This document shows positions 43,358-55,045 of a DNA stretch of 64,000 nucleotides, piece by piece; positions within the stretch are counted from its first letter, which is position 1; the number at the start of each line of letters is the position of its first letter. Made by a program: the position numbers and the translations under genes. Location of the stretch: positions 11,222,001 to 11,286,000 of the forward strand of contig NC_059436.1 in the NCBI RefSeq assembly GCF_021028975.2. The letters are read 5' to 3'. Under the pieces are notes generated by a model. That model ran no database searches. It was not told where the DNA came from and saw nothing but the letters and a program-made list of their open reading frames with translations. Origin of the DNA: Sphaerodactylus townsendi (Eukaryota).

Positions 43358-43412
43358 CTGAGACACAGCAGATGCTGAGCATTCCAGTTCCAAGAAGCAG
43401 AAGCATGTTCAT
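43358..43412 (-). CDS. Signal-peptide exon 1 of a second Ly6/uPAR three-finger-like gene (paralog of 55045-48564); downstream exons not found
   Basis: MNMLLLLGTGMLSICCVS-G|GTGAG, 55 nt, same length and phase as exon 55045-54991. About 400 bp of flank, including the TATA box (43560-43569), aligns with 54980-55370. Confidence 0.7.
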
Positions 43413-43834
43413 TTTTTCCGTCTTCTGCCACTAATGGGCAATGTAATGGTGAAACAAGAAAGGTGTTGCCAGCAAAACAACAAAGAAAGAGGGGCAGAAA
43501 TAGGATCTTGCTGTCTGTTTATGATTCTCATGCATCTGCTCCTGGGCAAGTTGGAGATATATTTAAATACCTAGGAACAGGAAGTCAGTCCTGGAAGGAG
43601 CCCAGGAAATGGAACAGTAGAAATGGCCAAAAAAAAAGGACACCTTCCTCAGCAAATATAAGCCTTGAAGCAGAACATGCCACTGGAAAGCTACAGTTGA
43701 ATTGAAAGGCTTTGGTTGAATGCTTGTCAGTCATATATTGAACTTTTATTGATGATCGCACAGTGGTAGGAATACCATCATTGTCATAATTCCTTGCAAA
43801 TAGTCAATATGATGGATCTTTGACAACCAACAGG

Positions 43835-44790
43835 GTTGGTTCAAGCTGAATTCAGAAAAGAAAGAGGCACTGGAAATCTTATTGCAAATTTATGTTGTTT
43901 CCTGAAGCATAGGAGAGAATTTCAGAATAAAATCAGCTTGTGTTTCATAGATTACAACAAAACTTCCACAGAAAAAGAACTGGATTAGTAGAGCGTCCTT
44001 TGCCCCCATATATGGTTTCCAGTTGGAAAAGGTGTTAGACAAGGATGTATTTAATTTCCTTATCTCTTCAGTCTTTATGCAGAACATACCATAAGGAAAA
44101 CTGGATTCGATTTAGATGAAGGTAGAGTGAAAATTCGGTGGGAGGGGGCGAGGAACATTCACTTGATCTATGCTGATGATATTACATTACTGGCAGAAAA
44201 TAGCAAACACTTGAAACTATTGCTGAAAATTAAGACAAAAAGTGCCAAAGCAGGACCACAGCTGAACATGAAGCAAACAAAAATAATTACTACTGCAGAA
44301 TTACTCAGCTTTAGAGCAGACAATGAGAAAATTGTATTGCTGAAGGCTTTCATGGCCGGAAATCACTAGGGTGTTGTGGGTTTTCCGGGTTGCATAGCCA
44401 TGTTCCAGTAGCATTTTCTCCTGACGTTTCACCTGCATCTGTGGCTGGCATCTTCAGAGGTTCCTCTGAAGATGCCAGCCATAGATACAGGTGAAACGTC
44501 AGGATAAAATGCTACTGGAACATGGCCGTACAACCCAGAAAACCCACAACACCCAAATGAGAAAATTGTTCAAGACTTTCTATTCCTTGTCTCAATCATT
44601 AAACAAAAGGGAAGTTGCAACCAAGAAAGCAGAAAGAAATTGTCACTAGGAAGGGCAGCCATGCTTGAACTAAAAAAGTTTCTTAAGTGTAAAGATGTGT
44701 CACTAGCAAGAAAAATCAAGTTAATTCATGCAAAAGTGATCCCTATTACTGCGTTTGCATGTGCAAGTTGGACAACGAAGGGTCACCATG
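43835..44790 (+). mobile_element. Decayed RTE/BovB-type LINE fragment
   Basis: RNIHLIYADDITLLAENSKHLKLLLKIKTKSAKAGPQLNMKQTKI resembles BovB RT (YADDTTLMAES...GLKLNIQKTKI). Confidence 0.8.
44336..44555. mobile_element. Penelope-derived palindromic insertion with two hammerhead cores
   Basis: 186-bp inverted repeat (44369-44554); 14-bp direct repeat AATGAGAAAATTGT at 44322-44335 and 44556-44569. Confidence 0.8.
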
Positions 44791-51500: not shown

Positions 51501-54500
51501 TCCCCACTCATTATTTAACATCTATATGCACCCCTTGTCTCAGTTGGTGCGAGCTTTGAGCTGACGTGGTCATCAGTTATGCCGATGACACGCAGCTCAT
51601 TCTGTTGATGGAGGGGGAGCTGCCACCCGCCCCTGCAGCTCTCCAGCATTGTTTAGAGGTCCATGGGCTGGCTTGGTTGGAAACAGGAGCAGGTTGAAAC
51701 TGAATCCAGCAAAGAAGCGGAGACCCTTTGGCTGGAGTCGGGGAGTGGGGGATTTCCAGTCGCCCGGTGTGGGAGGGGGACCTGTATTGGCACCTCAGTC
51801 CCTCTGTTCAAGCTTACACCTGGGGGGTCCACCTGGATTCGCCTTCTTTCAATGGAGACCCAGGTGGCCCATATAACCCGGGTCGCATTTTTACTCATCT
51901 TTGTCAGGCCCGGAACGGCTGGCCCTTCCTCTCTCAAGCTGGACCTGGCCACCCAATGTGGTCCATGCAACGGTCACCACTCAGGTTAGGACTATTGCAA
52001 CTTGCTCTATCGCTGGGCCTTCCTTTGCGCTTTCGATTCGAGATTAAATGAATGGTCCAGAATGCAGCTGCCTCAGTGTATGCTTACAGGAAGTGCCATC
52101 GCGATGAACATATTACACCTGTGCTCAGCCCGCTTGCACCTCGGCTACCAGTTGGAATACCGAATCACTTTCAAGGTGTTGGTGTTAACCTTTAAGGCCT
52201 TTGCAGCTGCCTGGGACCTCCGTGCACCTGCGGGACCTTCTTACCCCATATAAAGTCTTTAACCGGCCTTCATGCGCTCAGCAGAGGCCAATTTCACTGA
52301 GTGATCCACTGGCTCCCCTCAATGATACTTCGGCTGGCTCTTCTACCAGGGCCAGAGCCTTCACAGCTCTGGCCCCAGCCTGGTGGAACGCTCTACCTGG
52401 TGGAACGCCCTGCGGGACCTTTGCTGAGTTCCGGTGAGGGCCTGTAAGACCTAACTGTTCCACCGGGCCTCTGGGAGACTTCAGCTGTTGATGAGGGCCT
52501 CCCTCTCCCTCCTCTTCGCTCCCCCCTCTTCTGATAACATCATTGAATCCTACCGCCCCTGGGGGTTGAGGAGTTAACAGTAGATGCCATCTTGTATTAA
52601 TACTAATTTTAATGCTGCATTTTAATGGGGAAGGTTTATATTTTATCTTTTAGAGCCTGTATTACTTAACGAATTTTAATTGATTTGATATATTGTGCTC
52701 TATCTATGTTGTTCACCGCCCTGAGCCCTTAGGGGGAGGGCGGTCTAAAAACCGAATATATAAATAAATAAAATGCAAGGGAAAAGAGGGTGGGAGAGGG
52801 AAAGGACAGAGGGGTGGCATGCAAGGGAAGAGAAGTTAGGGAGGGGAGAGAGTGAGGGGTGGCATGCCAGGGAGGGGAGGGAGTGGGACCAGCATCTGGA
52901 TATGACCCACCCACTCTAGCAAAGGGAAAGGGGAGGAAGGTAGGGGGAGGGGTGCCATGCAAGGGAAGAGAAGTGAGGGAGGGGAGAGAGGGAGGGGTGG
53001 CATGCAAGGGAGGGAAGGGAGGGCCAAGCCAGTCTAGATTCCCTGAATACTGAGGTTATAGTTCAGAAAACCAGGTTGCCTCTGAGGCACGCGTTACTCA
53101 GGAGTAAGCTCAGTAAAGCAACCGTGACATACTTTGACTGGCTGAGCCGCACCCCTCAGAGAGTTTACTCAGAAGCGACACCCATTGCCACCACCCCAAC
53201 TTACTTCCAGGTAAAGGATCATGACCAGCCAGCCTAGGTGTGTGGCAGGGGTGCCTTTCCATTCCCCCCCCCCAAAGGAATGCACATCAATGACATCGCA
53301 CAGTGTCTGCCTGCGCGTTTCCAAGAGCACGTACTGCTAGCCTCTGCAATTGATTTGCTGCTACTGTTCCTTTCCTATTTCACCACAATAAGCCACAGCA
53401 ATGCGAAATTGGTTGCCCCCTTAGTGAGAATTCATAAGATCAGACTGGATCGTTTACACCTAGTCAAGCTATGCTGTTTCACACATTTGCCAGCAAAGCG
53501 CGAAGTCCTCTCTCTGCTGTCAGCCTAGGAGCCTGAATGTCAACCAGCTTTTCCATGTGTATGTTGACTTTGCTTATTTAAATGGTATTATTTCAATTGG
53601 TTGTTCCGTGAACTGGAAAATTCTCTAAGTCACTTTGGGTTCCGTTGGGGGAAAAAATCAACATGGAAATGCCCTAATAAATAATATGAATAAAAATGGG
53701 GGCCGGGGGGGGGGGGTTGGACAGTGTAGCATTGTGGGAAGGTGCCAACCTCCACCTACCAAACTCCAGGTGGAGTGTAGGGATCTCCCGGAATTTTAAC
53801 TGATCTCCAATTGATAGAGATCTGTTCCCCTGGAAAAACAAGGAAGCTTTGGAGGGTGGGCTGCATGGTCTTCTATTCTGCTGAAGCCCCTCGCCTTCTC
53901 AAACCTACTTTTCCCAGGCCCCACCCCTAAAACCTCCAGAAAGTTCCCAACCTGGAGCTGGCAACTCTAGTTGTAATGTATTATGCTGTCCCTAGAGCCA
54001 GCAAATCAAGACAAAATAAATGTCGCCAAAGGAACCAATTAATACAAGCAATTATTTCTCACCACTGTAAATCTGTTCTAGCTGGCACATCTGTCCTCGC
54101 GCAGGCTTACAAGTACTCGGATGAATACAGCCAGCTCCTTTTCTGTAGTCTAAGCAGGAATGGCAGATCAGCCGTTTTCCATAAGCTGTTGGGAAAGAGA
54201 GAACTAATTCACTGACTGAGGGCAATAAATGGACGAAGAGAGTATGATACAAACTGTGGGTGGCGGGGCAGACCAAGCTCAGGGGAAAGAAAGAAAGATA
54301 GAAAGACTCAGTCATCCCTCTTTGAAAAGATATGATTAATCTCCATGTCCTCTTTACATATATCTACCTTGCCATATCATTGCGCAATTTATATTATGTT
54401 AGAAATTGAAAGATTAGGGGAAATGTTCAATGGTAGACTCCATAGAATGTCTGCAGTTTAATTGTATTTATTTATAAACAGAGGTGGGACATGACACTCT

Positions 54501-55045
54501 TCCCTTCCAGCTTTGCTTTATGAGCACAGGAGCTTCTGGCCTCGGGTTTGTGCAGAGGACAACCTTAGTGCTATTCAGTGGGCACCATTGAAAAAATGAC
54601 TTTGTCCTGAAGAAGAAGAAGAGGAGGAGGAGGAGGAGGAGGAGGAGGAGGAGGAGGAGAGTCGAATTTATATCCCCCCCCCATGGGAAACTCAAAGGGA
54701 TTTACAAACTCCTTTCCCTTCCCCCTCACAACAAACACCCTGTGAGGTAGATGGGGCTGAGAGAGCTCAGAAGAACTGTGACTAGCCCAAGGTCACCCAG
54801 CTGGCGTGTGTTGGAGTGTACAGACTAATCAGGATTCCCCAGAGAAGCCTCCACAGCTCAGGGGGCAGAGCAGGGAATCAAACCCAGTTCCTCCAGATTA
54901 GAGTACACCTGCTCTTAACCACTACGCCACTGCTGCTCTCACACACTCATCCTTCCCATCATGCCTTTGCTGAAATTTTCACTTTCTCACCTGAGACACA
55001 GATGATACCAAGTATTTCGAAGCAAAGAAGCAGAATCGTGTTCAT
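48564..55045 (-). CDS. Secreted Ly6/uPAR (three-finger fold) protein, 100 aa; exons 55045-54991, 54185-54063, 48688-48564
   Basis: MNTILLLCFEILGIICVS/AYGKRLICHSCLDYRKGAGCIHPSTCKPARGQMCQLEQIYS/EEEPRQGCTTELKYCSTTRIDDYFGAITTHCCDHCEYCNVA*. Two phase-1 GT-AG introns, LxCxxC start, GC, CC...CN end. TATA box at 55186-55195; AATAAA on the minus strand at 48333-48338. Confidence 0.9.
49150..49315. repeat. GA-rich minisatellite-like repeat, left block
   Basis: Units ggcatgcaaggga(ag)... and ccagcatctggatatgaccc recur at 52774-53020. Confidence 0.75.
49320..52773 (+). mobile_element. L2-clade LINE, near-complete ORF2 with many indels, in intron 2 of the three-finger gene
   Basis: APE motifs LINARSINNK, ITETW, GDFN; RT motifs QSGFRAGHGTET, GVPQG, YADDTQL; C-terminal DYCN and YRITFKVLVLTFKA; 3' end ccgccctgagccc...gggcgg with (TAAA)n. 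Confidence 0.9.
52774..53020. repeat. GA-rich minisatellite-like repeat, right block
   Basis: Same units as 49150-49315. Confidence 0.75.
54609..54936 (-). mobile_element. Squam3-like SINE with (GAA)n(GAG)n tail in intron 1 of the three-finger gene
   Basis: Reverse complement of the 17544-17845 family. Confidence 0.8.

Follow-up and report, generated by a model that had tools for sequence, protein, structure and literature searches.

An intact three-finger gene displaced from an 18-locus cluster in the gecko Sphaerodactylus townsendi, a likely counterpart of mammalian ACRV1/PATE genes

We analysed a 64,000-nucleotide (nt) stretch of the genome of the gecko Sphaerodactylus townsendi (assembly GCF_021028975.2, contig NC_059436.1), which we call the window; it covers C12:11,222,001-11,286,000, where C12 is the scaffold that carries it, and window positions are counted from 1. 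An intact, spliced gene of the LU superfamily, gene A, lies in the window and encodes a small three-finger protein. As we read it, with a probability of about three in four, gene A was recently copied from a nearby cluster of 18 LU loci, and this cluster is the likely gecko counterpart of mammalian ACRV1/PATE. We consider it probable that the cluster and ACRV1/PATE share an ancestral amniote locus; birth-and-death turnover by duplication would have turned this locus into the present gecko cluster, and local rearrangements would have reshuffled its flanks.

Structure and splicing of gene A

Gene A is a single complete three-exon LU gene on the minus strand, from 55045 to 48564, with phase 1 GT-AG introns (Table 1). 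It follows the superfamily plan, as defined in the available part of PMC6600238, of a signal exon and two phase-1 exons with 8-10 cysteines that end in CC..CN. The precursor has 100 residues and a calculated isoelectric point (pI) of 6.4. Its mature part contains 11 cysteines, one of them an addition between CC and CN in exon 3, and the stop codon falls 2 residues past CN, so the protein lacks a glycosylphosphatidylinositol (GPI) tail. Five disulfides would form in such a protein, and the eleventh cysteine could permit a dimer. Against Pfam UPAR_LY6, exon 2 scores E 9e-5 and 23.3 bits, below the cut-off of 24.8 because the exon encodes half a domain. The initial annotation of this DNA had placed several secreted LU genes in 43358..55045; gene A is the one complete gene there, the second "gene" at 43412-43358 is an exon 1 only, and the interval holds no cluster.

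Evidence for splicing comes from one public contig, of run X3, in which 48688 is joined exactly to 54063, the junction of exons 2 and 3; it is this exact join that leads us to judge the run RNA-like. Across exon 2 and intron 1 the contig equals the window at 539/539 nt, whereas 13 and 29 sites set the two closest paralogues apart. In exon 3 it differs from the window at 6 of 488 positions, against 18 and 26 plus gaps for the paralogues. It follows that gene A is transcribed and spliced, whether from this copy or from an allelic one. The contig continues beyond the putative poly(A) signal, to 48201.

The parent cluster

We scanned 864 kb by profile. Eighteen LU loci fall within C12:11.030-11.180 Mb, and gene A is the only other one in the scanned span; a cysteine-rich seed at C12:11.456 Mb lacks an exon 3 partner and was set aside. 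Exons 2 and 3 are open in 13 cluster members, all of which stop 1-14 residues past CN. Gene A and all 13 are predicted, from a signal peptide and the lack of a GPI tail, to be secreted. The remaining loci are LU01, with a stop in exon 3, the partial LU12 and LU18, and LU08 and LU10, which are the closest copies of gene A and are frameshifted in exon 3. These two frameshifts may be consensus errors, because both lie within stretches rich in 1-base indels. We found no exon 1 for LU09 and LU13, and that of LU08 is damaged.

Two near-identical copies of gene A lie inside the cluster (exon 2 identity 95% and 85%); as assembled, no copy of this type other than gene A is open. Its signal exon resembles exon 1 of LU07, LU10 and LU16 more closely than any of 1000 codon shuffles (0/1000 as high) and that of LU17 nearly so (2/1000); the likeness to LU16 and LU17 ties gene A to canonical members of the cluster.

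Some further LU genes and fragments were seen on the way. Within the cluster, at L017:2081-2212 and 5163-5297, lie exon fragments, acidic and presumably nucleoplasmin-like, with no Pfam match. Another cluster of LU exons at C3:15.13-15.35 Mb, one of them with a stop directly past CN, is nearer the LY6 profile and sits on a long branch. A single-exon, GPI-tailed LU gene on C15 (L126:4036-4269) is presumably SPACA4/Bouncer.

Affinity to the PATE family

The PATE motif, in the available text of PMC3192744, consists of C-x2-C-x7,8-C-x6-C-x7,8-C and C-x3-C-x15,16-CC-x4,5-CN. Both halves occur in 4 of the 13 open members (LU13, LU14, LU16 and LU17) and the first half in 8, and the spacing 2-8-6-7-17-3 is common to the cluster and to elephant and turtle PATE-like proteins; LY6-type genes on another gecko scaffold, C852, have 4-5 and then 6. 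Several gecko subfamilies depart from the mammalian spacing, and gene A is a derived 11-cysteine member of the cluster rather than a canonical PATE.

Database comparisons point the same way. In Atlas features, LU14 is closest to PATE3 (0.94), ahead of LY6D (0.86), toxins (0.84-0.87) and CD59 (0.83), the last a family from which the gecko genes also differ in having no GPI tail; in Atlas structure, its best match is ACRV1/SP-10, with a template modelling (TM) score of 0.73. The second Atlas match of LU14 is C9orf57/DUF4723 (features 0.93, structure TM 0.68), to which LU11 and a turtle relative also show weak Pfam matches, although C9orf57 is, by its name, a gene of human chromosome 9. The AlphaFold model of LU14 has an all-beta three-finger fold, with a mean predicted local distance difference test (pLDDT) of 85; its PDB matches are weak and only of LU-fold and TGF-beta-receptor type, with GPIHBP1 the best (E 4e-3). 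A word search with exon 2 found no homologue, and the exon-2 profile found no match in PDB. Against 1.8 billion proteins that profile gave 26 matches, 24 of them non-self. We looked up 19, which leaves aside five long multi-stretch matches: 17 come from lizards or amphisbaenians, 1 from a turtle and 1 from an elephant, with no bird or snake among the 19. PATE-type or C9orf57-like names are carried by 8 of the 19 and LY6E, SLURP, LYNX or CD59 names by none; we take PIP-1 and SOLD1 to be members of the PATE locus. Among NCBI's automatic names are PATE4-like and PATE14-like for gecko proteins and PATE3 and PATE4 for turtle ones. A profile built from mammal and turtle proteins outscores an LY6 profile in 14/14 C12 rows.

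Our tree has 48 rows and 75 columns and leaves out the broken or partial LU01, LU08, LU10, LU12 and LU18, one domain-incomplete relative, and near-identical turtle and Podarcis cluster members. LY6-type genes make up one side of a starred branch (98/93), and no C12 gene falls on that side. LU13-15 cluster with turtle and elephant rows (89/84, unstarred), and the group around gene A takes in LU07, LU09 (99/91), LU11 and a tegu protein. A Komodo dragon protein labelled "Long neurotoxin 1" falls beside fence-lizard PATE14-like and agamid proteins (98/92), and looks like several merged cluster genes.

The LY6/SLURP/three-finger-toxin genes (human 8q24; the TOP1MT region in the accessible part of PMC10421932) share with the C12 genes the exon plan and, going by the LU14 model, the fold. 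The gecko LY6-type cluster, on C852, is nevertheless separate, with different cysteine spacing and mostly GPI-tailed products: 5 of its 7 exon-3 motifs have hydrophobic tails, and 2 end soon after CN. A Pfam topoisomerase search hit only scaffold C5, and TOP1MT beside the C852 cluster is unconfirmed. Synteny, cysteine spacing, Atlas matches and tree together support the proposal of the initial annotation that these could be sauropsid members of the PATE lineage, apart from the LY6/toxin locus.

Gene neighbourhood

Along C12 the genes run RPUSD4, PUS3, HYLS1, DDX25, VSIG10L2, CDON, then 225 kb without a recognised gene, the LU cluster, a gap, a caspase-like gene, SPA17, SIAE, PANX3, a gap, the contig with the duplicate, a gap, STT3A, CHEK1, a gap, FAM118B, SRPRA, FOXRED1, TIRAP and DCPS. 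PUS3, HYLS1, DDX25, VSIG10L2 and CDON occupy 10.65-10.81 Mb, with no N-gap between them and the cluster, and STT3A and CHEK1 lie at 11.32-11.35 Mb, ~140-160 kb from it. PANX3, CHEK1, CDON, STT3A and SIAE were identified by PDB matches; for HYLS1, PUS3, SRPRA, TIRAP, DCPS, DDX25 and SPA17 (a RIIa domain) we combined Pfam domains with presumed identity, and RPUSD4, VSIG10L2, FAM118B and FOXRED1 are what we take those genes to be. The neighbours PANX3, SIAE and SPA17 named by the initial annotation are thus confirmed, SPA17 at this lower grade, and of the genes it offered for a microsynteny check HYLS1 and PUS3 are linked gap-free and STT3A and CHEK1 across gaps, while Pfam EI24 has no match in the gecko genome; a reading of EI24 at 11.295-11.31 Mb is our unconfirmed assumption.

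Mammalian ACRV1/PATE genes (human 11q24.2, mouse 9A4) are likewise tandem three-exon genes with a signal peptide, a single LU domain and no GPI tail, linked to DDX25/HYLS1/PUS3 and CHEK1/STT3A; in rat the Pate cluster lies between Acrv1 and Ddx25 (PMC3316536, available part). The gecko cluster abuts the same gene block as the mammalian one, but at the block's other end, and its flanks are rearranged, with CDON on one side and the caspase-like gene, SPA17, SIAE and PANX3 on the other.

A few neighbours deserve mention in their own right. A gene with a caspase domain (Pfam Peptidase_C14) and further exons, at window positions 13-2519 (-) and 5027-7408 (-), separate the LU cluster from SPA17; we take these exons to be retinol-saturase-like, and know of neither gene from human 11q24. 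TBRG1, which in human presumably lies between SIAE and PANX3, left no exons that we noticed between the gecko genes (27000-34800), although no search was aimed at it. Just ahead of RPUSD4, C12:10,622,001-10,641,000 is ~19 kb of simple G-rich repeat.

Selection and function

Three pairs of recent paralogues differ at 38 replacement and 4 silent sites (one-sided p 0.05), and LU05/LU06 at 15 and 1 (p 0.14), counts that are to be read with the choice of pairs for recency and with assembly noise, which may inflate replacements; they give only a hint that positive selection acts among recent paralogues. By analogy with mammals, the proteins would be secreted into male-tract fluid and would act non-catalytically, their three loops binding sperm-surface proteins or nicotinic-type receptors, a proposal whose chances we regard as evenly balanced. 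In the available parts of the papers concerned, mouse Pate genes are mostly epididymal, deletion of Pate8-10 leaves male mice nearly sterile, and modulation of nicotinic receptors is reported for mammals (PMC3192744, PMC6744855, PMC4839075).

The alternative that fares best accepts PATE ancestry and gives the proteins another job, as secretions of skin, cloacal or oral glands, for instance cationic antimicrobial or scent proteins. A pI above 8 in 10 of the 13 open members would suit such a role, as would the accessible reports that rat PATE is lethal to E. coli at 50-100 ug/ml and that mouse Pate-P/Q are placental (PMC3316536, PMC3192744). Gene A itself, however, is not basic, and the mammalian members are mostly male-tract genes; we regard a gland role as possible though somewhat unlikely.

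The duplicated block

Gene A sits in a block (43321..56739) that was copied from the cluster and displaced from it; the cluster itself lies beyond PANX3, at a distance of 91-240 kb. The block, a second piece from the cluster and a PRPF4 duplicate lie on one 25.7 kb contig that is bounded by gaps and is a mosaic duplication from three donors, partly of noisy sequence. The PRPF4 duplicate runs past the window end (4086 nt of the next piece), is 91-95% identical to its donor at C12:36.05 Mb, has frameshifted exons and carries its own retroelement insertion at 61623-62965; the gene that follows PRPF4 in the duplicate is presumably CDC26-like. Among the contig rows listed, none bridges the join at 60219-60224.

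Table 1. Features of the window.
Feature	Positions	Strand	Basis
Gene A coding exon 1, signal peptide, 18 codons + 1 base	54991..55045	-	sequence, similarity to cluster exon 1s
Gene A exon 2, cysteines 1-5, spacing 2-8-5-7	54063..54185	-	Pfam UPAR_LY6; donor used in X3 contig
Gene A exon 3, coding part, six cysteines	48564..48688	-	acceptor used in X3 contig
Putative poly(A) signal of gene A	48333..48338	-	sequence reading; ~225 nt past stop
Orphan exon 1 "B", copy of the LU07 signal-peptide exon cut off from exons 2-3	43358..43412	-	likeness to LU07
Duplicated block (LU07 exon 1 + LU08-type gene) from C12:11,070,652-11,085,142	43321..56739		88-97% identical in pieces, gaps included
LINE-type retroelement in gene A intron 2	49320..52770	+	alignments to 11.077 and 11.103 Mb skip element
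Second duplicated piece, from C12:11,121,768-11,123,660 within cluster	57535..60224		alignment
Duplicated PRPF4 5' part, introns + frameshifts, donor C12:36.05 Mb	60219..64000	-	PDB match hPrp4 E 2e-15
Assembly gap between PANX3 side and 25.7 kb duplicate-bearing contig	42294..42384		N run
PANX3	34844..38340	-	best PDB match Pannexin-3 E 1e-89

The long interspersed nuclear element (LINE) in intron 2, which we take to be an L2, is missing from both parent-like copies; over 3.2 kb it shares 77% identity with an element at C12:11.438 Mb. At the left end of the block, the region of orphan exon "B" is 95% identical to LU07 exon 1 and its promoter over 330 nt; ~735 nt of intron 1 are deleted in the copy, and homology stops at ~43321. 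The likeness thus ends inside LU07 intron 1, ~75 nt ahead of exon 2, which explains the orphan exon; a profile search and tblastn found no exon 2 or 3 for it within the window.

Could the block be an assembly artefact, a misplaced haplotig or chimeric noisy contig, so that gene A is no separate locus? Its place on a three-donor mosaic contig between two gaps, the unbridged gap on the PANX3 side, the many 1-base indels, and a ratio of transitions to transversions near one in parts, as in a noisy consensus, would fit. Several observations nevertheless make this improbable. Contigs (42972-43376) of runs X1, X2 and X4, from two samples, read through the left breakpoint and extend 56 nt past 43321 without substitutions; the spliced X3 contig matches gene A and not the other copies; one block shows 38 transitions, 15 transversions and zero 1-base gaps; and the block carries retroelement insertions of its own.

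The first exon of PANX3 is ~10 kb from gene A, with a gap in between that the initial annotation had pointed out. Its reasoning from PANX3 is not what carries the PATE reading: none of the listed contigs of four runs bridges 42294-42384, which leaves the adjacency of the block to PANX3 unproven, the block was duplicated recently and away from its source, and the cluster lies on PANX3's other side. At this gap an X4 contig enters 168 nt from the left, and right-side X1 and X4 contigs carry ~450 unplaced letters. Adjacency to PANX3 is unnecessary to the PATE reading.

Two other stretches of this contig drew attention. At 56683-57873 there is one deep contig of run X3, which resembles a LINE 3' part. 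A cysteine-rich stretch at 46230-46600 was considered as a third LU gene and rejected for want of a profile match; we read it as a decayed retroelement.

Discussion

A number of points weigh against deriving gene A and its cluster from the ACRV1/PATE locus. Gene order is unlike the human order as we take it to be (CHEK1-ACRV1-PATE1-4-HYLS1-PUS3-DDX25-CDON), with CHEK1 facing FAM118B instead of the cluster; the linkage of STT3A and CHEK1 to the cluster crosses four gaps; and synteny comes from one reptile genome. Gene A, with a spacing of 2-8-5-7-14-6-15-0-2-2, fails both halves of the PATE motif, and the library and tissue of run X3 are not on record. Profile margins are slim in several rows (17.7 vs 12.3 bits for gene A, 31.0 vs 30.0 for LU09), one cluster member is auto-named PSCA-like, and the exon-3 profile has PSCA as its top PDB match, with no PATE entry among 47 matches. 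The mammalian rows of the tree are four elephant proteins (PATE14-like, PIP-1-like or unnamed), and human or mouse PATE/ACRV1, CD59 and snake toxins are absent from it. The LU phylogeny proposed by the initial annotation does split off the LY6-type genes, but the free tree does not recover PATE as one clade, which the approximately unbiased (AU) test does not reject (p-AU 0.28); on the same 75 columns the test does not reject a clade of the gene A subfamily with LY6 either (p-AU 0.18).

A further reading, akin to the independent squamate expansion raised in the initial annotation, is that secreted LU genes multiplied on their own in reptiles and lie near 11q24 genes by chance. The altered gene order, the grouping of most members with squamate proteins only and the unsettled deep branches are what one would expect of it. 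A gecko-only clade is nonetheless rejected outright (p-AU 1e-11) and a squamate-only one weakly (p-AU 0.035), and the cysteine spacing held in common, the PATE3 and ACRV1 Atlas matches and the turtle relatives named PATE3 and PATE4 also speak for common descent, so that we think chance proximity very unlikely. Descent of the gene A subfamily from the LY6/SLURP/three-finger-toxin lineage, with later relocation, we also think very unlikely: the AU result just given, the LY6-like spacing of 5 between cysteines 3 and 4, and a top Atlas match of exon 2 alone to a toxin-like cluster (0.82 vs 0.81 for PATE2, both at the level of leads) are outweighed by the starred branch, the signal exon shared with LU16 and LU17, which bear the full motif, the interleaving of gene A's paralogues within the C12 cluster, and the spacing of 7 between cysteines 4 and 5, which is that of the cluster where C852 has 6.

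Returning to the ACRV1/PATE reading, how new is it? A full-text literature search, whose coverage excludes most subscription journals, found no published description of a reptile PATE cluster. The reviews and studies consulted, in the parts available, treat PATE genes in no species but human, mouse and rat, and the word PATE does not occur in the accessible part of a study of three-finger synteny in reptiles, which treats the TOP1MT locus (PMC10421932). Non-mammalian members may already be included in the original PATE cluster paper or in the vertebrate Ly6/uPAR tree that supplements PMC8488580. The surprise is moderate, because automatic annotation already applies PATE-like names in lizards and turtles.

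We tentatively suggest, at somewhat less than even odds, that the PATE/ACRV1 locus is amniote-wide rather than mammalian and that lizards retain it as a second source of secreted three-finger proteins, one that turns over fast and is distinct from the toxin locus. In the gecko, with 18 loci and a new outlier, it would exceed the human cluster in size, and most change between recent paralogues would fall on amino-acid sites. Its products would act for sperm or seminal fluid in lizards, and some proteins annotated there as "neurotoxin" would belong to the same family. For toxin surveys, the grouping of Komodo "Long neurotoxin 1" with cluster genes is a caution. If the ancestry is as we propose, the reptile cluster would date the PATE reproductive family to the amniote ancestor, and would let one ask whether epididymal three-finger proteins arose alongside internal fertilisation.

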